Below, piece after piece: positions 3,429-53,236 of a DNA stretch of 64,000 nt. The notes under the pieces are model-generated. The model was not told where the DNA came from, did no database searches, and saw only the letters and a program-made list of their open reading frames with translations. How positions within the stretch are numbered: the stretch's first letter is position 1; the number at the start of each line of letters is the position of its first letter. The position numbers and the translations under genes are program-made. Source of the stretch: Sphingomonadaceae bacterium (GTDB taxonomy: Bacteria > Pseudomonadota > Alphaproteobacteria > Sphingomonadales > Sphingomonadaceae); contig PKED01000047.1 in the NCBI GenBank assembly GCA_002863155.1, forward strand, positions 10,674-74,673, read 5' to 3'.

Positions 3429-5522
<2,094 letters not shown>

Positions 5523-5628
5523 CTAGCTTTGGCGCAGGCAGCGATCAAGCACGCTTGCAACCGGCGGCGTGCTTCGTGCTTTGTGGTCGCGCGGCGCGCC
5601 GGGGTGCCGCCTGCTCCAAAGGAAGACC

Positions 5629-5964
5629 ATGGCCACCCTCCTGCTGCTCTGCGCGTCGAACCTGTTCATGACGGTCGCCTGGTACTGGCATCTGAAAGGC
5701 GGGATGACGAAGCCGATCCTGGTCGTGATCCTGGTGAGCTGGGCCATTGCGCTGATCGAATATTGCTTTGCCGTGCCGGCGAACCGGATCGGCTATGTTG
5801 CCGGGTGGAGCGGCGGCCAGCTGAAGGTGGCGCAAGAGGCCATTACCCTGATCGTCTTCGCGGGGTTCGCAGCGGTGGTACTGGGCGAACCGCTGACGCT
5901 GCGCCATCTGGGCGCGTTCATTTGCCTGATGGGCGCCGTCACCTGCATGTTCGCCGGGCGGTAA
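5629..5964 (+). CDS. Small DMT-family (DUF486-like) four-helix membrane protein
   Basis: ATG 5629 after AAAGGAAG. SNLFMTVAWYWHLK and SWAIALIEYCFAVPANRIG motifs; hydrophobic throughout. Confidence 0.8.
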   Translation: MATLLLLCASNLFMTVAWYWHLKGGMTKPILVVILVSWAIALIEYCFAVPANRIGYVAGWSGGQLKVAQEAITLIVFAGFAAVVLGEPLTLRHLGAFICLMGAVTCMFAGR

Positions 5965-5980
5965 GCGATCGCGGCGTGGC

Positions 5981-7645
5981 CTAGGCCACTTCCAGCAACC
6001 GCACCGCCTGCGCCCTTGCCTCGTCGGTGATTTCCGCGCCCGACAGCATCCGGGCGATTTCCTCGCGCCGCTCCCCGGAATCGAGCGCGCGAACCCCGGT
6101 GCGGGTGACAGTGCCGTCGCTCGATTTGGCGATGAAATAATGGTGGCTCCCGCGAGCCGCGACTTGTGGGCTGTGAGTGACGACCAGCAGCTGCGTCGTT
6201 TCCGCCAGCCGCGCGAGCCGCTCGCCGATCGCGCTTGCCACCGCACCGCCGACGCCGCGGTCGATCTCGTCGAAGATCATCGTCGCGGCACTTCCCGCCT
6301 CGGCGAGGCTCACCTTGAGTGCGAGGATGAAGCGCGACAATTCGCCGCCGCTCGCGATCTTGATCAGCGGCGCGAAGGGGGCGCCGGGATTGGTCGCGAT
6401 TTCGAATTCGACCCGGTCCTTGCCCGCGCCCGACCAGCCGTCCGCCCCGAGCGGTGCCACGACCGTGCGGAAGCGTGCGGCGTCGAGTTTCAGCGGGGCG
6501 AGTTCGCGCTTCACCGTTGCGTCGAGCCGCTCGGCGGCAGCGATGCGGGCCGCCGTCAGCGCGGCGGCGGCGGCATCATAGGCGCTTGCGGCGGTTTTGG
6601 CGGCGGCGTCGAGCTTGGCGATGCTCCCTGCGCCCCCCTCGATCCGTTCGAGCCGGGCGGCCAGATCGTCGGCGAGTGCGGCGAGATCGTCCGGCTGGAC
6701 GCGGTGCTTGCGCGCCACCGCACGCAGTTCGAACAGCCGCGTCTCGTCGGCCTCGAGTTGCGCGGGGTCGAAGGCGAGCGCGGCCGCCGCGGCATCGATA
6801 TTGTCCTGCGTCAGCGCGGCGTCGTTGATCGCGCGGTCGATCGCGGCGAGCGCTTCGCCGAGTGCGTCATGCTCATCGGTGACCCGCTCGAGAATGCGGG
6901 CGGCCTGGCGCAGCTTGGTGAGCCCGCCGTCCGACCCATCGAGCAGATCGGCAATGGCCTGCAGGTCGACCGCGATCTTCGCGCCGCGCTGCATGGTCGC
7001 GCGGCGATCGGCGAGCGTTGCTTCCTCGCCGGGTTCGGGCGCCAGCCGGGTCAGTTCGGCGACGGCGTGCTCCAGCCAGTCGCGGTCGCGCGCGGCGCTG
7101 TCCTGCTCGGCCCGTGCGGTCGCGAGCGCGGCGACGGCGGCGCGCCATGCGCCCCAGGCCGCAGCGACCGGCTGGGTATCGATCCGGCCGAAGCCGTCGA
7201 GCAGCGCGCGGTGCCCGGCCGGGCTCAGCAGCCCGCGATCGTCATGCTGGCCGTGAATCTCAACCAGCATGCCGCCGAGCGTGCGGAGCAGTGCGGCCGA
7301 TGCGGGCTGATCGTTGACGAAAGCGCGGCTGCCGCCATCGGCCTTGACGATGCGGCGGATCAGGAGCGGCTCGCCGGGATCGAGATCGAGGCCGTTTTCG
7401 TCGAACAGCGCGGCGATCGCGCCGTCGCGCAGGGGCGGATTGAAGCTTGCGGTCACCACCGCCTGCGCCGCGCCCTGCCGTACCAGCGCGCTGTCACCGC
7501 GCGCGCCGAGCGCGAGACCGAGTGCGTCGAGCAGGATCGACTTGCCCGCACCCGTCTCCCCGGTCAGCACGCCGAGTCCTGCGCCGAATTCGAGATCGAG
7601 CGCTTCGATCAGAACGACGTCGCGGATGGAAAGCGCGGTCAGCAT
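5981..7645 (-). CDS. recN: DNA repair protein RecN
   Basis: MLTALSIRDVVLIE start, Walker A GETGAGKS, EIHGQHD, ASGGELSRF signature, IFDEIDRG, VTHSPQVAA; 554 aa. Confidence 0.97.
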   Translation of the reverse strand: MLTALSIRDVVLIEALDLEFGAGLGVLTGETGAGKSILLDALGLALGARGDSALVRQGAAQAVVTASFNPPLRDGAIAALFDENGLDLDPGEPLLIRRIVKADGGSRAFVNDQPASAALLRTLGGMLVEIHGQHDDRGLLSPAGHRALLDGFGRIDTQPVAAAWGAWRAAVAALATARAEQDSAARDRDWLEHAVAELTRLAPEPGEEATLADRRATMQRGAKIAVDLQAIADLLDGSDGGLTKLRQAARILERVTDEHDALGEALAAIDRAINDAALTQDNIDAAAAALAFDPAQLEADETRLFELRAVARKHRVQPDDLAALADDLAARLERIEGGAGSIAKLDAAAKTAASAYDAAAAALTAARIAAAERLDATVKRELAPLKLDAARFRTVVAPLGADGWSGAGKDRVEFEIATNPGAPFAPLIKIASGGELSRFILALKVSLAEAGSAATMIFDEIDRGVGGAVASAIGERLARLAETTQLLVVTHSPQVAARGSHHYFIAKSSDGTVTRTGVRALDSGERREEIARMLSGAEITDEARAQAVRLLEVA

Positions 7646-7663
7646 GCGCCTTGCGTCATACAG

Positions 7664-7678
7664 GAACGAAGCGGATAC
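7664..7678. promoter_or_regulatory. Possible alphaproteobacterial LexA (SOS) box
   Basis: GAAC-gaagcgg-ATAC, one mismatch from GAAC-N7-GTAC, 19-33 bp upstream of the recN ATG. Confidence 0.35.
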
Positions 7679-7747
7679 GGAATAGCGCGATTGCAAATCC
7701 CGCGTGCCGCTGCCAATCTCGCGGCGTCGGATTGCGGGGGGGAGGCG

Positions 7748-8416
7748 ATGATGACAGCCATGGCTCGGTCGGCGCTGGCGGCACTGGCAACATTGTGCCT
7801 GGGCGGCGCGGCACCGCCGCCCGCACCGGTCGAACCCGGCGACTGCTGGGCCGTCATCCCGAGTGACGGCGGCAAGAACAACATCTTCCTGCACCTCGAT
7901 AAGGCATATTACGTCACCTACGACAGTTTGTCGGTGCAGCAGTCGGTCGGCGCCGTGATTCTGAAAACATCCTTTCAGGTGCGCAGCTTCTACGGGCTTC
8001 CAGCCGGCGATCTGATCGCCGCCGATATCTTGACATCGGTGCAGGATGTTGAGACCAAAACCCGTGTCCGCCCCCGACCGGGTCAGAAACATCTTTTCAC
8101 CGCAACGCTCGCAGACGGCTCGACGCTGAGCGGTCAGACTGGGGTGACGATGGTGGCGAAGCGGGCCGATCTGGTCGGGCCGATGGCGGGCGATCCGCAA
8201 AAGGGCGCGCGGCTGCACGACGACATCCTCGGCGGGAAGCCGGTGGACCTGCGCTATTCGATCAGCGGGGGCGGGACCGTGCTGCTCTCGACGCGGGTGA
8301 CCGGGCCTTATGCCGCGAAACCCAATTATCGGCTCTGGGCGCTCAAGACCGCACGGAATTTCGCCGCCGAACGGATGCGGACCGGGCAGTGCCCGATCAT
8401 GCGCAATTTCCAGTAG
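7748..8416 (+). CDS. Hypothetical exported protein (222 aa)
   Basis: GGAGG RBS directly before ATG 7748; Ala/Leu-rich signal-like N-terminus; fills the bamD-recN gap; no recognised motif. Confidence 0.7.
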   Translation: MMTAMARSALAALATLCLGGAAPPPAPVEPGDCWAVIPSDGGKNNIFLHLDKAYYVTYDSLSVQQSVGAVILKTSFQVRSFYGLPAGDLIAADILTSVQDVETKTRVRPRPGQKHLFTATLADGSTLSGQTGVTMVAKRADLVGPMAGDPQKGARLHDDILGGKPVDLRYSISGGGTVLLSTRVTGPYAAKPNYRLWALKTARNFAAERMRTGQCPIMRNFQ

Positions 8417-8452
8417 CGTTGCCGCAGCGTCGCGGTCGGCGGCTGTGCGTCG

Positions 8453-9295
8453 TCAGGCGGCCGTCGCCGCGGGCTGATCGTCCTTCTTGCGCTTGTCGCG
8501 CTTCGGCTTCTTCTCGCGCACGTCGCCATTCTTTTCGATCAGCTTGAAGGCGCGATCGTACCAGACGGTGCCGGGATAATTGGCGCCGAGCACCGCCGCC
8601 GACTTCTTGGCCTCCGCAGGCACGCCGAGCGCGAGATAGGTCTCGGTCAGCCGCATCAGCGCCTCGGGCACGTGCGTCGTCGTCTGGTAATCGTCGATTA
8701 CCTTGCGGAAGCGCAGCGTCGCGCCGAGCCATTCGCCGCGCGTTTCGTAGAAGCGGCCGATCTCCATTTCCTTGCCGGCAAGGTGGTCGCGCACCAGGTC
8801 GATCTTGAGCCGCGCATCGGCGGCATATCGCGAGCCGGGATAGCGGCGCGACAATTCGCCCAGCGCGTCGAGCGCCTGCTGCGTGATCTTCTGGTCGCGC
8901 GTCACGTCCGAGATCTGCTCGTAATAGCACAAGGCGATCAGATAATAGGCATAGGGCGCGTCGCGGTTGCCGGGATGGACCGCGAGGAAGCGCTGCGCCG
9001 ATTCGATCGACTTGGTGTAATCGGCCTCGAGATAATAGCTGAACGCGCTCATCAACTGCGCGCGGCGCGCCCATACCGAATAGGGGTGCTGGCGCTCGAC
9101 TTCGTCGAACAATGCCGCCGCTTCGGCATAGCGCCCGCGATCGAGATAGCGCTTGGCGCTCGCGTAGAGGGTCGACACGTCGCGCGCAACATAGGGAATG
9201 TCGCCCTTTGATCGGGTACCGTTGCAGGCGGCGAGCGGCAGGGCGCAAGCGGCGATCAGCGCGAGCGAGACGGAGCGGGACAGGGGGATACGCAT
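8453..9295 (-). CDS. bamD: Outer-membrane assembly lipoprotein BamD
   Basis: Lipobox LAAC; TPR-like motifs (FDEVERQHPYSVWARRAQLM, RDHLAGKEMEIGRFY). Confidence 0.95.
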   Translation of the reverse strand: MRIPLSRSVSLALIAACALPLAACNGTRSKGDIPYVARDVSTLYASAKRYLDRGRYAEAAALFDEVERQHPYSVWARRAQLMSAFSYYLEADYTKSIESAQRFLAVHPGNRDAPYAYYLIALCYYEQISDVTRDQKITQQALDALGELSRRYPGSRYAADARLKIDLVRDHLAGKEMEIGRFYETRGEWLGATLRFRKVIDDYQTTTHVPEALMRLTETYLALGVPAEAKKSAAVLGANYPGTVWYDRAFKLIEKNGDVREKKPKRDKRKKDDQPAATAA

Positions 9296-9440
9296 TGCCG
9301 CCTCATTAGCCGAGGGACGCTTCGACGAACAATGGTTTTTCGCAACGTCCGACGGCCGGTGATTTTGCAGCGGCAGGGTGGATCGCTTGGCGCGACCGCG
9401 GCGTTCAGGCTAGGACGATCAATGACGGGAGATCATCGGG

Positions 9441-10259
9441 ATGACGGCGACACTGCTGACGACGCGGCGCGTCGACAAGCCCTGGGGCAGCCACCGGCTG
9501 TGGCCGGGCTTTGCCGATCCCGCGCCCGATGCCGAACCGGTCGGCGAGGTCTGGTTCGAAGCCACAGGCGAGCCCGACTTGCTGATCAAATATCTGTTCA
9601 CCAGCGAAAAGCTGTCGGTGCAGAACCACCCGTCGGACGAAGAAGCGCACAAGCGCGGGCTGCCGCGCGGCAAGGACGAATGCTGGCTGATCCTGGCCGC
9701 CGAGCCCGATTCGACGATCGCGATAGGCCCCAAGGCGCCGGTTGGCGCGGACGAATTGCGGGCAGCGGCGCTCGACGGATCGATCGTCGACCTGCTCGAC
9801 TGGAAGCCGGTGAAGGCAGGCGATTTCTTCTATTCGCATTCGGGGGTTATCCACGCGATCGGGGCGGGGCTGACGCTGATCGAGGTGCAGCAGAACAGCG
9901 ACACCACCTATCGCCTCTATGATTACGGCCGCCCGCGCGAACTGCACCTCGACGACGGCGTCGCGGTGGCCGAACTGACGCCCTATGTCGCGCCGTCGGC
10001 GCCGGGCGAGGTCGCGCCGGGGCGCATGATCTTGGTCGAAGGGCCGAAATTCGTGCTCGAACGCTGGGGCGGCGGCCGCCGCGACATCGCGCTCGGCGAC
10101 GGGCAGCAGGGGTGGCTGGTGCCGGTCAGCGGCGCCGGGATGGTCGGCGGCATCGCCTTCGAAGCCGGGCAGTGCGTGCTCGTTGAGGGGACGGAAACGA
10201 TCGAGGCGGCGCCGGGCAGCGACCTGCTGTTCGCCTATCCGGGGGCGCGGCGGCTCTGA
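9441..10259 (+). CDS. Class I mannose-6-phosphate isomerase-like cupin
   Basis: KPWG, GEVW, LLIKYLFTSEKLSVQNHP, GKDECW, HAIGAG, EVQQNSDTTYRLYDYGR. Confidence 0.88.
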   Translation: MTATLLTTRRVDKPWGSHRLWPGFADPAPDAEPVGEVWFEATGEPDLLIKYLFTSEKLSVQNHPSDEEAHKRGLPRGKDECWLILAAEPDSTIAIGPKAPVGADELRAAALDGSIVDLLDWKPVKAGDFFYSHSGVIHAIGAGLTLIEVQQNSDTTYRLYDYGRPRELHLDDGVAVAELTPYVAPSAPGEVAPGRMILVEGPKFVLERWGGGRRDIALGDGQQGWLVPVSGAGMVGGIAFEAGQCVLVEGTETIEAAPGSDLLFAYPGARRL

Positions 10260-47867: not shown

Positions 47868-49223
47868 CTATAGAACAATACCGATCAGCAGTGTCGCGTT
47901 GAGCGCGATCACCAGTCCCGCGACGCCCCAGGCGAGGATGTGCAGCCAGTCCGGACTGACGAGCGTACCCATCACGGTCCGGTCACCGGTAAAGCTGACC
48001 AGGGGCACGATTGCGAACGGCAGCTGCAGGCTCAAAATGACCTGGCTCAGCACCAGCAGATCGGTCGCGCCGCGATCACCCAGCCATGCAACCACGATCA
48101 CGGCGGGAACGATCGCGAGCAGGCGTGTCGCCAATCGTCGCAACCAAACCGGCAGTTTCAGGTCGAGAAACCCCTCGGCGACGATCTGACCGGCCAAGGT
48201 GCCGGTGATCGTCGAATTCTGACCCGAAGCGAGCAGCGCAACTGCAAAGACGACGCTTGCGGCGCCCGCGCCCAGCATGGGGCTGAGCAGGCGATATGCC
48301 TGGTCGATATCGGTCACGTCGGTGCGGCCCGCCTGATGAAAGGTCGCCGCCGCAAGGATCAGGATCGCGGCGTTGATGAACAGCGCGAGCCCCAGCGCGA
48401 TCGTCGAATCGAGCACGGCAAGGCGTGCAGCCTGTCGCTTGCCCTCGGCGTCGCGGGCAAAGGCGCGGGTCTGGACGATCGAGGAATGCAGATAGAGATT
48501 GTGCGGCATCACCGTCGCGCCAAGGATGCCGATGGCGATATAGAGCATCGCCGGATCGGTCGCGATTTCGCCATCGGGGATCAGGCCGGCGGCGATTGCC
48601 GCGATGTCGGGCTGGGCGATCGCGAGTTCATAGGCGAAGCAGCCCGCGATCACCACCAGCAGGGTGACGATGAACGCTTCGAGCAGCCGGAAACCCCAAT
48701 GCTGGAGCATCAGGATCAGCAGCACGTCGAATCCGGTGAGCACTACGCCAGCGATCAGCGGCAGCCCGAACAGCAGCTTGAGCGCGATCGCGGTGCCCAG
48801 CACTTCGGCAAGATCGCAGGCGATGATCGCCAGCTCGCACAACAGCCAGAGCAGCAGGTTTACCGGGCGCGGATAGCGTGCGCGGCATGCCTGGGCGAGG
48901 TCCATGCCGCTCGCGATGCCAAGCCGCGCGGCAAGCGCCTGGAGCAGCATCGCCATCAGGTTGGCGAGCAGGATGACGCTCAGCAGGCGGTAGCCGAACG
49001 CCGATCCGCCGGCGATGTCGGTCGCCCAGTTGCCCGGGTCCATATAGCCGACCGCGACCAGATAGCCCGGCCCCGAAAAGGCGAACAGCCGCCGCCAGAA
49101 GCCGATGCCGGGCCCCGGCACGGCCACGCTGCGATGGCTTTCGCTCAACGAGGCGCGGACGGCGACTGCCGGTTCGGCGATGGCGCCGGCCGGATTGTGC
49201 GCGAAGGGCGGGGGCGGGGCCAT
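47868..49223 (-). CDS. mntH: Nramp divalent metal (Mn2+) transporter
   Basis: [46 protein letters not shown]. Confidence 0.95.
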
Positions 49224-49285: not shown

Positions 49286-50164
49286 TTATCCGCGCGCGCC
49301 GTTCACTCGCGTCATCACCGCGTCGAGCTTGGCGAGCATGGCGGGATTGCGTCGCGCCGGGTCGGTGATGAGTGCTGCGTCGAGCACCGTGTCGATCGGC
49401 GAGGGCGCGCGTTCGGGCGGCAGCGACGCGAGGAAGGCGGCGACCGTGCGCCGGGCGAGATCGCCATTGGCGTGCATCTGGGCGATCACCTCGCTCACCT
49501 CGACATGCGCTTCGCTTTCGCGCCAGCAGTCATAGTCGGTGACCATGCCGATCAGCGCATAGGGCAGCTCGGCCTCTCGTGCGAGCTTGGCCTCGGGCAT
49601 CGCGGTCATGCCGATCACGTCCGCACCCCATTGCCGATAGAGCAGGCTTTCGGCGCGGCTGGAGAATTGCGGGCCCTCCATCGCAAGATAGGTCGCACCT
49701 TCGCTCATCGCGCCGCCGGCCGTCCGGACTGCCTTCGCGGCGAGTGCCGAGAGGCGCGGGCAAACCGGCTCCGCCATAGAGACATGCGCCACCATGCCGG
49801 TGCCGAAGAAGCTCGATGCGCGCGCGACGGTGCGATCGATGAACTGTTCGACGATCACGAACCGGCCGGGTTCGAGTTCCTCGCGCAGCGAACCGATCGA
49901 CGAGATGGCGAGGATGTCGGTGCAGCCGCTGCGCTTCAGCGCATCGATGTTGGCGCGGGCGTTGAGCTCACTCGGCGGGATCACATGGCCGCGACCGTGG
50001 CGTGGCAGGAACACGATATTGACGCGGCCGACCCGCCCGAACAGCAGCTGGTCCGACGGCATGCCCCATGGCGTTTCGACCGCGCGCCACTCGGCGTCTT
50101 GCAGCCCCTCGATCGCATAGAGGCCGGAGCCGCCGATAATGCCGATTGTCCAGTCACCATTCAT
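49286..50164 (-). CDS. mtnP: S-methyl-5'-thioadenosine phosphorylase
   Basis: [57 protein letters not shown]. Confidence 0.93.
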
Positions 50165-50211
50165 GCTGTTACTCCGAATTGAATCCGATACGTCAGAAAA
50201 GGACATTGCCG

Positions 50212-50631
50212 ATGCGGTCGATCGCTGCCCTTGGGGTGCTTGCCCATGCCATGCTGTTGCCCGCCGCCGCTCATGCCGCCGAGCCGATCACAGGGCAATG
50301 GCTGACGAAGGAAGGCAAGGCGATTGTCGCGATCGAGCCGTGCGGTAAGCAGCTGTGCGGTCGCATCGCCAGGGTGATCAAGCCCAACCCCGGCGGCCAC
50401 GGCGTCGATGAACGCAACCCCAATCCGGCGCTGCGGAACCGCCCGATCGTGGGTTTGCCGGTGCTGTCCGGTTTCAGCGATGCCGGACGGGACTGGCGCG
50501 GCCGGATCTACGACCCCGAAGCGGGGAAGGAATATCGCTCGATCGTCAAGAAGCTGCCGGACGGCACGCTGCAGGTGCAGGGGTGCATCGCCTTTTTCTG
50601 CCAGTCACAGACCTGGAAACCGGCGAAATAG
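50212..50631 (+). CDS. DUF2147 domain exported protein
   Basis: GQWLT, CGKQLCGRI, D..NP.P.LRNRP..G, GRIYDPEAGKEY, GCIAFFCQSQTW. Confidence 0.9.
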   Translation: MRSIAALGVLAHAMLLPAAAHAAEPITGQWLTKEGKAIVAIEPCGKQLCGRIARVIKPNPGGHGVDERNPNPALRNRPIVGLPVLSGFSDAGRDWRGRIYDPEAGKEYRSIVKKLPDGTLQVQGCIAFFCQSQTWKPAK

Positions 50632-50655: not shown

Positions 50656-52452
50656 TCAGAAGGTGAGCGGCGTCTGCGATTTGGCTGCAACGCGGCGGAT
50701 CAGCGCGTCGTCTTCTTCGCGACCCGGCAGCTGAGCATAATTGAAAAAGGCATTGACCCGGTCATAGTCTGATGTTCGTGTCGTTCCGTAAGGCTGGATC
50801 AATTCCTGATCGAGCGCCTCTTCGTGCAGATACAGGCTCATGCGGAAGAAATTGGCGGTGATCCGCTTGAAAGCCTCCAGCTGCTTGGCCTTGATCGTTG
50901 GGCTGACGGCTGAATTGCCGGGGCTGTTCCAGCGCGTCGGCGTCGCCCGATTATAGCCGGCGAAATAGTTGAAGCTCAGCATATAGGGTGGCGGTGCTTT
51001 GCCCCAGGCGGCGTCGGGGCGATAGCTGGCGGCGACCAGCCGCATCCCCGTCTGCAATGTGCGATGAATGAACATATCCTGTCGCCACATCGCGGCCTGG
51101 AGATATTCGCCCACCAAGGTCGAATTCGACTGGCTGATCCGTGTTTGCGCCGGATCGAGGGTCGCGCCCAGCATGAACCACGAAAGCTGCAGGTCGTCGA
51201 GCATGGCGTCAGCGCGCAACTGCGGCTCGACGCTGTCCAGCACAAAGGACGGATAGCCGAGCAGCCTCATGACATCGCGCGCATTATCCTGTCCCTTGTT
51301 GCCGACACCGCCGAGGCTGGCGTCGCTCGGCCGGAATGCCGATCGGGCGGCTTCGCCGATTTCCCACCAGGGATTGGGCAGGAAGCGCGGCATTTTTTCC
51401 CCACTCGGGTTGGAAAGAACGGGCTGATTGGCAAAACTCGTCCTGAACGGTTCCTCCGAAGCCAGATAAGCCAGCGCCATACCATTGCGCATGAAACCGG
51501 CGTTCCCCGCCGCTTTTGCGCGAAGGCCGTGATGCCCCAGGAGTGTGGATTTGAACTTGGCAGCGGCAAACCGCTCGACTTTGGCCGCGTCTGCCGGGTC
51601 ATACGGCGTCGGCGCGGTGAAGGACTGGGTCATCTTGTCGACAGAGAAGTAAAGCGTCCAAAAGTTGTAGTCGCTCGGATCGTTCAGATATTTGTCCTGA
51701 AGCGCGAGCCACGCCGATTCATAGCCGGGCTTTGCCACGCGAGCGATATCGGTGACCCAGTCGTTGATGGTGCCTTCCTGTGCGCCGTGGGCAAGATCGG
51801 CCGACCAGAGCGGGAACTGGATTCCGATCTTCATCCGGCTGAAGTCGACGTTGAGCAGTTCATCGCGAGCACGTTTCGCATCGGCCAGCGACCGGATCGG
51901 CGTAGCGCCGCTCAGAGTCGGCAGGAAGCTTGCCATCTCGTCGCCAAGTGCTGCGTCGCGCTCGATACTGGTCGCGCCCGGCAGGACGGCGCCACCGGGC
52001 TGGAACGGGCGGAAGGTCCGCGGATCTTCCGGTGCCAAGGCATAGCGTGCGCGGACTGCACTAATGCCGGCGACAAGGGCGTTCGCTTCTGCTTCGCTTG
52101 CGCCGTCGATCTGCGCGCGTCGGATAGTGTCGGCAACGCTGGTGCCGATCCGTGCGAGATCGAAAAAGTCCGGCCCATGGCATGAAGCGCAGCTGCCCTT
52201 GACGCGCGGTGCGCGCCACATCGCAAGCGCCGTCGCATAGGTTTCAGTAGGAAGCTGCTTGGTGATGGTGCCGGACGGCAAGATGGGTGATGAAAAGCTG
52301 GTGAGCGATGGCGCCGCGCCGCTCACGATGGCGAAAGGGGAACTGCCGCTTCTTTTAACGGTTGCGGCAAATGCGGCCAGCGACAGTAAGGATACACCGC
52401 CGATTACTGCAAGCTTCGATGCCTTAGCTTTGCCGTAACGCCTCTTTTCCAC
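50656..52452 (-). CDS. Large exported hypothetical protein with one c-type heme motif
   Basis: Basic plus hydrophobic N-terminus, Ser/Pro linker, then KGSCASCHGPD; start uncertain (GTG 52452 chosen; ORF open to 52503). Confidence 0.8.
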   Translation of the reverse strand: MEKRRYGKAKASKLAVIGGVSLLSLAAFAATVKRSGSSPFAIVSGAAPSLTSFSSPILPSGTITKQLPTETYATALAMWRAPRVKGSCASCHGPDFFDLARIGTSVADTIRRAQIDGASEAEANALVAGISAVRARYALAPEDPRTFRPFQPGGAVLPGATSIERDAALGDEMASFLPTLSGATPIRSLADAKRARDELLNVDFSRMKIGIQFPLWSADLAHGAQEGTINDWVTDIARVAKPGYESAWLALQDKYLNDPSDYNFWTLYFSVDKMTQSFTAPTPYDPADAAKVERFAAAKFKSTLLGHHGLRAKAAGNAGFMRNGMALAYLASEEPFRTSFANQPVLSNPSGEKMPRFLPNPWWEIGEAARSAFRPSDASLGGVGNKGQDNARDVMRLLGYPSFVLDSVEPQLRADAMLDDLQLSWFMLGATLDPAQTRISQSNSTLVGEYLQAAMWRQDMFIHRTLQTGMRLVAASYRPDAAWGKAPPPYMLSFNYFAGYNRATPTRWNSPGNSAVSPTIKAKQLEAFKRITANFFRMSLYLHEEALDQELIQPYGTTRTSDYDRVNAFFNYAQLPGREEDDALIRRVAAKSQTPLTF

Positions 52453-52651
52453 GGATAATTGCCCTCCGGATTCGGTGTTTTCCCGCGTCGGTTTTCGCCG
52501 CACCAGGCCGAACCCGAGTTCAACAAGATCACTGAAGATCGGAGTAAGGCTAAATTTCGGCGACGGCTTGAGTGGGCGCTTGTAATGGACCGGCCATCAG
52601 CGCTCAGGCAGTTCGCATGGCCTTATCGATTGGGAGCGGATTTCCCGAAAA

Positions 52652-53236
52652 CTAACGCTTGTCAGGAATGACGACCGTCTTCTGCGCGGTGCATGCCCTG
52701 GTGGCATAGGCCTCGGCATAAGGCCGGTCGAAGCACTTCAGGAAACCGTCGAGCACGTTGAGATTGAGCGGCCAGTCGATCGGGACATCCTGGCCGTTGA
52801 TCTTGAAGCTGGGCAGGTCGCGGGGCTTCGGCAATGCCGCCAGCCTATCCCGCGCCCGTTGCAGCGCGGGCCGATCATGACGCAGAAACGCGATGCTGCC
52901 GTCGACATAATGGTTCCAGCCGATGCCGTCGTCGGCCGGTGGCTTGCGCGCCAGATTGAACAGCGCGATCGCAGCGGCGGTTTCACTTAGAAACGCACGC
53001 ATTTGCCCTTCGTGCCAGAACAGGATCGACGAGTTCTTGCGCGGTTTTGCCTCCCGATAATCGCGCAAGAGATCAGCAGCCTCGGCGCGGCAGCCGCGCT
53101 GTTCAAGCGCGCGCCAGCCGCCGGTCAGATCCTGATCAAATTCTTGTTCGCCAAGCGCCAGCAGTGCGGCTCGATCGAAGCTGCAATCCGCCTCAGGCTT
53201 GGGAACCGCCGCAAGCAACAGGGTGAACCACATCAC
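52652..53236 (-). CDS. Hypothetical exported protein (possibly helical/TPR-like)
   Basis: Short hydrophobic N-terminus; three Cys; fills the gap downstream of the AlkA-like gene. Confidence 0.65.
   Translation of the reverse strand: MMWFTLLLAAVPKPEADCSFDRAALLALGEQEFDQDLTGGWRALEQRGCRAEAADLLRDYREAKPRKNSSILFWHEGQMRAFLSETAAAIALFNLARKPPADDGIGWNHYVDGSIAFLRHDRPALQRARDRLAALPKPRDLPSFKINGQDVPIDWPLNLNVLDGFLKCFDRPYAEAYATRACTAQKTVVIPDKR

Follow-up and report, generated by a model that had tools for sequence, protein, structure and literature searches.

A multi-phylum family of exported proteins with an invariant haem c motif, represented by an accessory gene of a Sphingomonadaceae bacterium

A contig of a Sphingomonadaceae bacterium (GenBank assembly GCA_002863155.1, PKED01000047.1, positions 10,674 to 74,673; this whole stretch of 64,000 nucleotides is hereafter denoted the window) carries, on the minus strand, a gene (hereafter, the haem gene) whose product very probably is exported, carries haem c and belongs to a new family. 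This protein combines a Sec-type signal peptide and a single CASCH motif for haem c attachment with a large, predominantly helical body that shows no detectable relationship to characterized protein families. The best reading overall, on which our judgement is evenly divided, is that of a Sec-exported, periplasmic monohaem c enzyme with a catalytic haem and possibly a glycan-related substrate. A first-pass annotation of the window, based on the nucleotide sequence and its open reading frames (ORFs), had described the protein as an exported orphan with one haem site and proposed either a new class of monohaem enzyme or a redox sensor.

A broad family with an invariant haem motif

Contrary to the first-pass description, the protein has many relatives and is no orphan. 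Of 119 homologues detected by means of a word-seeded search, about 110 aligned across 70-99 % of the query, with 32-90 % identity, and more than 100 proteins gave E-values from 0 to 1e-60 across 80-97 % of the length. A phmmer search of 1.84 billion cluster representatives (50 % identity) yielded 351 representatives at E <= 1e-3, including 120 at E <= 1e-30. The most distant relatives mostly match best over the N-terminal core (residues 85-340; here and throughout, residues are numbered from GTG 52503, that is, in the 615-aa version of the ORF). A scan of genome collections identified the family in Sphingomonadales (Sphingomonas, Erythrobacter, Stakelama, Aurantiacibacter), in Hyphomonadaceae and Robiginitomaculaceae, in Burkholderiales (Polaromonas, Variovorax, Rhizobacter) and in Deinococcota (Trueperaceae, Meiothermus), as well as in Oligoflexus, Myxococcota, Verrucomicrobiota, Rhodothermaceae and Gemmatimonadota. 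In the source records, the members are named 'hypothetical protein' throughout or, when an additional N-terminal cytochrome domain is present, 'cytochrome c', and no description of the family was found in the literature.

Among 31 aligned sequences, the invariant residues are C105, C108, H109, D112, R128, R129, R151, R165, Q168, P169, G171, D236, W249, Y272, W442, G446, E466 and H480. When the comparison is extended to 108 diverse representatives, which share only 23-55 % identity with the query, C105, C108, H109, R151, Q168 and Y272 are still 100 % invariant, closely followed by R128, P169 and W442 (99 %), H325 (96 %), and Y467 and H480 (94 %); the window protein carries all the invariant columns. 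In sequence order, the family pattern reads CxxCH ... R ... RPFQPGG ... Y ... H ... W ... Y ... H. No feature of the family is more strongly conserved than the haem motif, in which the degree of invariance is equal for the His and the two Cys residues. Given that C-x-x-C-H is retained by every representative at this level of divergence, the presence of CASCH in the window protein is, judging from the alignment, not due to chance. Conservation of the motif among homologues, which the first-pass annotation had named in advance as a test of its proposal, is complete across the 108 representatives. No conserved Met was found in this set, the highest column being M555 (62 %).

The window protein contains a single CxxCH, as do 73 of the 108 representatives, and C105 and C108 are its only Cys residues, in agreement with the first-pass description. 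The N-terminus, KRRYGKAKASK-LAVIGGVSLLSLAAFA, ends in a signal-peptidase-type site, AFA↓A, with AT as the first two residues after the cut, and the signal peptide lacks a lipobox Cys. A lipobox-like Cys is present in 22 of the 108 relatives, as assessed with a simple lipobox pattern, so that many family members are predicted lipoproteins. The basic and hydrophobic N-terminus and the Ser/Pro linker noticed originally correspond to this signal peptide and to the Ser/Pro/Thr-rich segment that follows it; in the full-length structural model, residues 46-78 of this linker region have predicted local distance difference test (pLDDT) scores < 50. The content of aromatic residues, to which attention had also been drawn, is only marginally high (W+F+Y, 10.7 %).

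Many members of the family come from metagenome-assembled genomes of glacier, glacier-fed-stream and other cold freshwater communities (Polaromonas, Deinococcales and Trueperaceae, according to the record titles of loci L015-L046). An ecological bias of the family to oligotrophic biofilm habitats is suggested.

Relationship to known cytochromes and folds

Searches of protein family databases place the core of the protein outside the known families, consistent with the original impression of some 500 residues of unrecognized sequence. No Pfam family matched the window protein at E <= 10, and the sole NCBIfam match was a sub-threshold one to the SorB cytochrome (E 0.014, residues 80-114). The protein had no match in a sequence search of the PDB, and the family profile gave only motif-level PDB matches, to cytochrome c4 (E 0.03) and the di-haem peroxidase 6nx0 (E 0.16). 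When 31 members were compared with Pfam at E <= 5, the core yielded only weak matches of the CxxCH type; matches to cytochrome models were confined to the additional N-terminal domains in the di-haem relatives, and PF03150 was matched in only 2 of the 31 members, at E >= 0.033 and at the motif level.

The full-length AlphaFold2 model, built from the family alignment, has a mean pLDDT of 86.9 and a predicted template modelling score of 0.83; residues 85-615 are mostly above 90 pLDDT, and the fold is almost wholly helical. A Foldseek comparison of this model with 350,542 PDB chains returned a best E-value of 0.38, with matches to unrelated helical repeats. A separate AlphaFold model of residues 82-340 (pLDDT 91.3) likewise produced nothing better than E 1.9 against the PDB, the sole cytochrome among the matches being cd1 nitrite reductase (1h9x_B, E 8.5). 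As modelled, the fold is unlike any solved PDB structure. Thus, the profile hidden Markov model (HMM) and structure-similarity searches that the first-pass annotation had called for revealed neither a full-length nor a domain-level match to a characterized family.

Two groups of c-type haem proteins were compared with the family feature by feature. Class-I c-type cytochromes (PF00034/PF13442) are similarly exported, with an N-terminal helix followed by CxxCH and a His proximal ligand, and the motif-level similarity to SorB and cytochrome c4 points in the same direction. In contrast to the 80-120 residues of these cytochromes, the body consists of 530 residues here; there is no HMM match above the gathering score, and no compact three-helix fold is detected. 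The Met/His ligand that is located 40-70 residues after CxxCH in class-I cytochromes is not conserved here, and this stretch holds the invariant RPFQPGG motif instead. The di-haem CCP/MauG superfamily (PF03150), which includes BthA, consists of c-haem enzymes of the periplasm whose Met-less catalytic haem is fed by a carrier haem; MauG uses a His/Tyr haem. The di-haem relatives within our family show the same logic of a carrier domain plus what would be a reactive haem. However, CCP/MauG proteins have two CxxCH sites, compared to one here, the second haem of the relatives belongs to a generic class-I domain, and beyond the motif-level 6nx0 match, there is no sequence or fold match to PDB structures. 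On the defining features examined (HMM match, haem number, Met ligand and fold), the family belongs to neither group.

The lack of a Pfam cytochrome match for the core, together with the failure of Foldseek to detect a cytochrome c fold, would also fit a CxxCH motif that binds no haem and forms a metal site or a redox-active disulfide, or else a purely structural periplasmic or surface protein. This alternative appears extremely improbable in view of the 108 sequences, all of which retain the His along with the two Cys, the exported appearance of all members examined, and the weak motif-level similarity to the haem sites of SorB, cytochrome c4 and CCP. Furthermore, the host genome encodes CcmE (PF03100, 113.9 bits).

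Domain architectures and genomic context of the relatives

The core is preceded by an additional cytochrome c domain of class I (PF13442/PF00034) in 31 of the 108 representatives; this domain has an MPAF-type Met and contributes a second CxxCH, about 105 residues upstream of the conserved one. This cytochrome-plus-core layout resembles that of many periplasmic redox enzymes, which join a carrier cytochrome to a catalytic domain, and argues by analogy for a chain in which the conserved haem forms the reactive end.

Other relatives are fused to modules for binding or display: PA14, GLEYA, Golvesin_C, the carbohydrate-binding modules (CBMs) CBM56, CBM60 and CBM96, DUF4082, DUF1349, PKD, Big_7, CHB_HEX_C/Fn3_assoc, dockerin and the sorting tail of the type IX secretion system (T9SS). 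No known catalytic domain was found among the fusion partners of family members. One member with a CBM60 shares 56 % identity with the window protein.

For five module-fused members, the contigs are long enough to be informative (two more are too short), and in four of these, the surroundings resemble those of carbohydrate-active enzymes (CAZymes). In locus L097, the CBM60-fused member (8001-10178) is located directly downstream of, and on the same strand as, a gene for a 1189-aa CBM60 plus Sortilin/BNR protein (4206-7775); the two proteins have the same N-terminal CBM60, and a gene for a CCP_MauG di-haem peroxidase lies two genes downstream of the haem-family member. In L098, the gene of the CBM56 form and a GH2 gene are divergently oriented; in L099, a CBM96 protein and two proteins of the pectate-lyase fold, one of them with a CBM6, come after the PA14-CBM96 form; and in L101, the DUF1349-Golvesin form is preceded by a GH42M-domain protein and a 1560-aa pectate-lyase-fold/PKD protein. 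On the fifth contig, only a 3-keto-disaccharide-hydrolase-like gene is found nearby.

In a betaproteobacterial subgroup (P0049, P0073, P0079), an insert of about 90 residues lies between signal peptide and haem domain and contains a DxDGDG motif that is dockerin/EF-hand-like. The insert occupies columns ~190-330 of alignment A1, and in P0073, PF00404 is matched with E 3e-6.

Proposed mechanism

Taken together with the conservation pattern, these architectures make a new class of monohaem enzyme, the first of the two original proposals, plausible. Under the proposed mechanism, the signal peptide would be cleaved after AFA, and the unfolded protein would be sent to the periplasm via Sec, with the Ser/Pro/Thr linker preceding the folded body. 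Haem would then be joined covalently to C105 and C108 by the Ccm system of the host, and H109 would act as the proximal ligand. On the distal side, Met would be lacking and the ligation would be open or unusual, the pocket being formed by some of the residues R151, Q168, Y272, H325, Y467 and H480. Because the Met ligand is missing and family-invariant polar residues would take its place, the haem would be a reactive centre of the peroxidase or oxygenase type rather than a simple electron relay; a ligand-accessible or Tyr/His-tuned haem may perform a peroxide- or O2-dependent oxidation. Electrons would be exchanged via a class-I cytochrome c, which is fused upstream in ~29 % of the representatives and would be a separate periplasmic protein in our bacterium. 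We lean slightly towards a catalytic haem as opposed to a pure carrier, on the strength of the architectures.

The substrate would be a glycan, or a compound associated with glycans, in the extracellular space or the periplasm, given that relatives, including the one with 56 % identity, carry carbohydrate-binding or display modules and adjoin glycoside-hydrolase-like and pectate-lyase-fold genes. This assignment, also derived from architecture, is tentative. The window copy would represent the bare catalytic body, with about 530 all-helical residues and none of the modules.

Among known systems, RoxA-type rubber oxygenases, which have two haems and a CCP/MauG-related core, appear to be, alongside the di-haem CCP/MauG enzymes themselves, the closest precedent for the proposed working principle. 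RoxA is a c-type di-haem dioxygenase and an extracellular rubber oxygenase, and the enzymes of this type from Steroidobacter/Xanthomonas sp. 35Y are similarly secreted proteins of about 70 kDa in which a covalent c-haem itself cleaves an extracellular polymer (PMC5979037). The family differs from them in that it has no PDB sequence or fold match and in that its modules point to glycans, not to polyisoprene. The closest precedent for the CBM association would be the CjX183 domain of Cbp2D from Cellvibrio japonicus, a c-haem in a CBM-bearing secreted protein involved in polysaccharide oxidation (PMC8981238). CjX183, however, is a small carrier domain that reduces lytic polysaccharide monooxygenases (LPMOs), whereas here the conserved body encompasses 530 residues and the neighbourhood holds no conserved LPMO or other partner.

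The Cbp2D precedent also brings up the possibility of a non-catalytic electron-transfer cytochrome that would serve, for example, an extracytoplasmic oxidase or an LPMO-type enzyme, with the helical body used for docking or scaffolding. A haem c motif combined with CBM fusions is typical of Cbp2D-type redox partners as well (PMC8981238), the high conservation of H325 and H480 (94-96 %) could allow bis-His ligation, and the homologue in L097 has a di-haem peroxidase gene two genes away. Still, we consider a pure carrier unlikely: a conserved body of some 530 residues for a single haem, including invariant Arg, Gln and Tyr, exceeds what docking needs, the fusion of a carrier-type cytochrome c in 31 of the 108 relatives implies that the conserved haem is the end point, and no gene for a partner enzyme is conserved in the vicinity.

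The second original proposal, a redox sensor, belongs with a more general alternative, namely, a haem-based gas or redox sensor or a scavenger of haem or iron. A single haem that lacks a conserved Met ligand would suit such a role, and so would a stand-alone gene with an Nramp metal transporter gene 1.4 kb away. However, no signalling output domain was found in the approximately 150 relatives examined, neither a regulator nor a transporter is a conserved neighbour, and the Nramp adjacency reflects local synteny that is common to relatives without the haem gene; moreover, CBM, dockerin and T9SS fusions typify secreted enzymes. A function of this kind is quite improbable, and the sensor proposal is not borne out.

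Several observations weigh against a glycan-active haem enzyme. No biochemical characterization of any member was found in the literature or among database names, and the window protein itself has neither a CBM nor any other fused module. The CAZyme context comes from four loci of distant, module-fused members, and PA14, PKD and Big domains occur in adhesins, too. The neighbourhoods of the homologues, the inspection of which had been recommended, hold no conserved gene: all-versus-all ORF clustering of 71 loci yielded a best cluster present in 6 loci, and in a Pfam census of 102 immediate neighbours, no family occurred more than 3 times, and neither analysis indicates a conserved operon or partner gene; around the bare-core members, the window gene among them, there is no conserved neighbour either. 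H325 or H480 could serve as the sixth ligand, which would make the haem a low-spin, bis-His carrier. Finally, we dropped the idea that Q168-P169 is a homologous substitute for the Met-Pro ligand motif: hhalign aligned the N-terminal region of the family with the class-I cytochrome c domains of the relatives over only 16 columns around CxxCH, so that the correspondence is one of position.

Gene model and flanking sequences

The annotated ORF, 50656-52503, is indeed uninterrupted on the minus strand, with 615 codons counted from GTG 52503. The true start, however, is almost certainly GTG 52452, which yields a protein of 598 aa, close to the size given originally; the features of the gene and its product are listed in Table 1. 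This start is favoured by the position of the Shine-Dalgarno sequence, by the alignment of GTG 52452 with the ATG start in two ~90 %-identical environmental loci (L095 and L096), where GTG 52503 matches no start, and by the closest protein cluster, in which 11 of 11 members are 598 aa long.

Table 1. Features of the haem gene, its product and the adjacent upstream gene (residues in 615-aa numbering)
Feature	Coordinates	Strand	Basis and remarks
Coding sequence of the haem protein, 598 aa + stop	50656..52452	-	ORF; start by Shine-Dalgarno sequence, alignment with L095/L096 and cluster length
In-frame 5' extension, 17 codons from GTG 52503	52453..52503	-	Not conserved as coding in L095/L096; no Shine-Dalgarno sequence; probably untranslated
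Shine-Dalgarno sequence GGAGGG, 9 nt 5' of GTG 52452	52462..52467	-	Read from sequence
Sec-type signal peptide, residues 18-46	52366..52452	-	Basic n-region, 16-residue hydrophobic core, AFA↓A site; read from translation
Ser/Pro/Thr-rich linker, residues 47-84	52252..52365	-	Predicted disordered; poorly aligned among homologues
Most conserved N-terminal core, residues 85-340	51484..52251	-	Conservation table; domain-model pLDDT 91.3
CASCH haem c attachment motif, C105/C108/H109, residues 105-109	52177..52191	-	Invariant in 31 and in 108 sequences
R151 (invariant)	52051-52053	-	Within N-terminal core
Q168 (invariant), within RPFQPGG motif	52000-52002	-	Within N-terminal core
Y272 (invariant)	51688-51690	-	Within N-terminal core
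H325 (96 %)	51529-51531	-	Within N-terminal core
C-terminal all-helical part, residues 341-615	50659..51483	-	W442 (99 %), Y467 (94 %), H480 (94 %), N551 (90 %)
Neighbouring 194-aa hypothetical gene	52652..53236	-	Just upstream of the haem gene; no Pfam match found; GC3 0.733

Upstream of the haem gene, a stretch at 52520-52570 (minus strand; ~60-110 nt 5' of the start), CTTACTnCGATCTTCA…TTGAACnCnGGTTC, is kept in L095/L096 (5900-5950), and the remaining intergenic DNA has diverged. This could possibly be a promoter or an operator; a sigma-70 consensus was not detected on the minus strand.

On the other side, the haem gene converges with a DUF2147 gene, and the two stop codons are 24 bp apart, with no terminator-like hairpin found between them. 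As listed, the DUF2147 ORF (50146-50631, plus strand; TTG start, 161 aa) shares 61 bp with the MTAP gene. The real start of the DUF2147 gene is probably further downstream, since the gene calls in relatives are 135 aa long.

Origin of the haem gene

The haem gene is present in one copy in its own genome, where no paralogue was found, and is a rare accessory gene. It was not found in 40 related genomes, 24 of which are congeners, nor in 300 genomes sampled across 86 genera of the order. The congener G005 keeps the gene order HI0933-cytb561-GT2-MTAP-DUF2147-AlkA, and there, the DUF2147 gene abuts the AlkA-like gene, leaving the site of the haem gene empty. L095 and L096, by comparison, have the gene order of the window, with the haem gene located between AlkA and DUF2147.

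The composition of the gene differs from that of its surroundings, as had been noticed originally: the GC content is 0.61 vs a window mean of 0.667 (2.9th percentile among 1.8-kb windows), and the GC content at third codon positions (GC3), 0.716, is the lowest among 13 local genes. In a maximum-likelihood tree, the window protein falls inside a Sphingomonadales clade (Shimodaira-Hasegawa-like approximate likelihood ratio test, 99). Elsewhere in the tree, Deinococcota are interleaved with Burkholderiales, and the starred branches force at least 4 changes; by this interleaving, the family apparently moves between phyla. The absence of the gene from relatives, the empty site in G005, the lowest local GC3 and the interleaved tree jointly indicate that the haem gene was likely gained horizontally at this site, in support of the first-pass annotation, although many independent losses may instead account for the pattern of absence. 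Carriage on plasmids was considered and rejected, given that a tblastn search of 72,556 plasmids yielded 0 matches to the haem gene.

The 194-aa gene upstream was also examined as a candidate partner of the haem gene and rejected: it has no counterpart between AlkA and the haem gene in L095/L096, the closest loci, and among 24 related genomes, it occurs in only 2, both of which lack the haem gene. As L095/L096 have the window order without it, the 194-aa gene looks like a separate, later small insertion.

The Nramp (MntH-like) gene (47868-49223, minus strand), adjacent to MTAP, is shared by the window, L095/L096 and the congener G001, and is absent from this position in G005. The neighbourhood thus appears to hold a second indel, at the Nramp gene.

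Implications

Exported c-type haem proteins are well known. What is new here is a multi-phylum family of at least 351 clusters that is still without a name, a Pfam model, a solved structure or a fold known to Foldseek. An invariant haem motif devoid of the usual Met, combined with carrier fusions and CAZyme-style modules, leads to the hypothesis of a family of secreted haem enzymes involved in polysaccharide turnover. In its most far-reaching form, which we regard as doubtful, this would be a new class of c-haem enzymes with a previously unseen all-helical fold and a His-ligated haem opposite an invariant Tyr/Gln/Arg pocket that oxidize or oxidatively cleave glycans or their substituents, with the window gene as the minimal form, devoid of modules. 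That such enzymes would constitute a new bacterial 'auxiliary activity' family working with glycoside hydrolases is, likewise, a speculative proposition. Even as an electron carrier only, the protein would still present a new haem-binding fold. If the enzyme hypothesis is true, the family would bring a new combination of cofactor and fold to oxidative biomass degradation and would provide annotation for many hundreds of proteins now termed 'hypothetical' from environmental Sphingomonas, Polaromonas, Trueperaceae, Myxococcota and Verrucomicrobiota.

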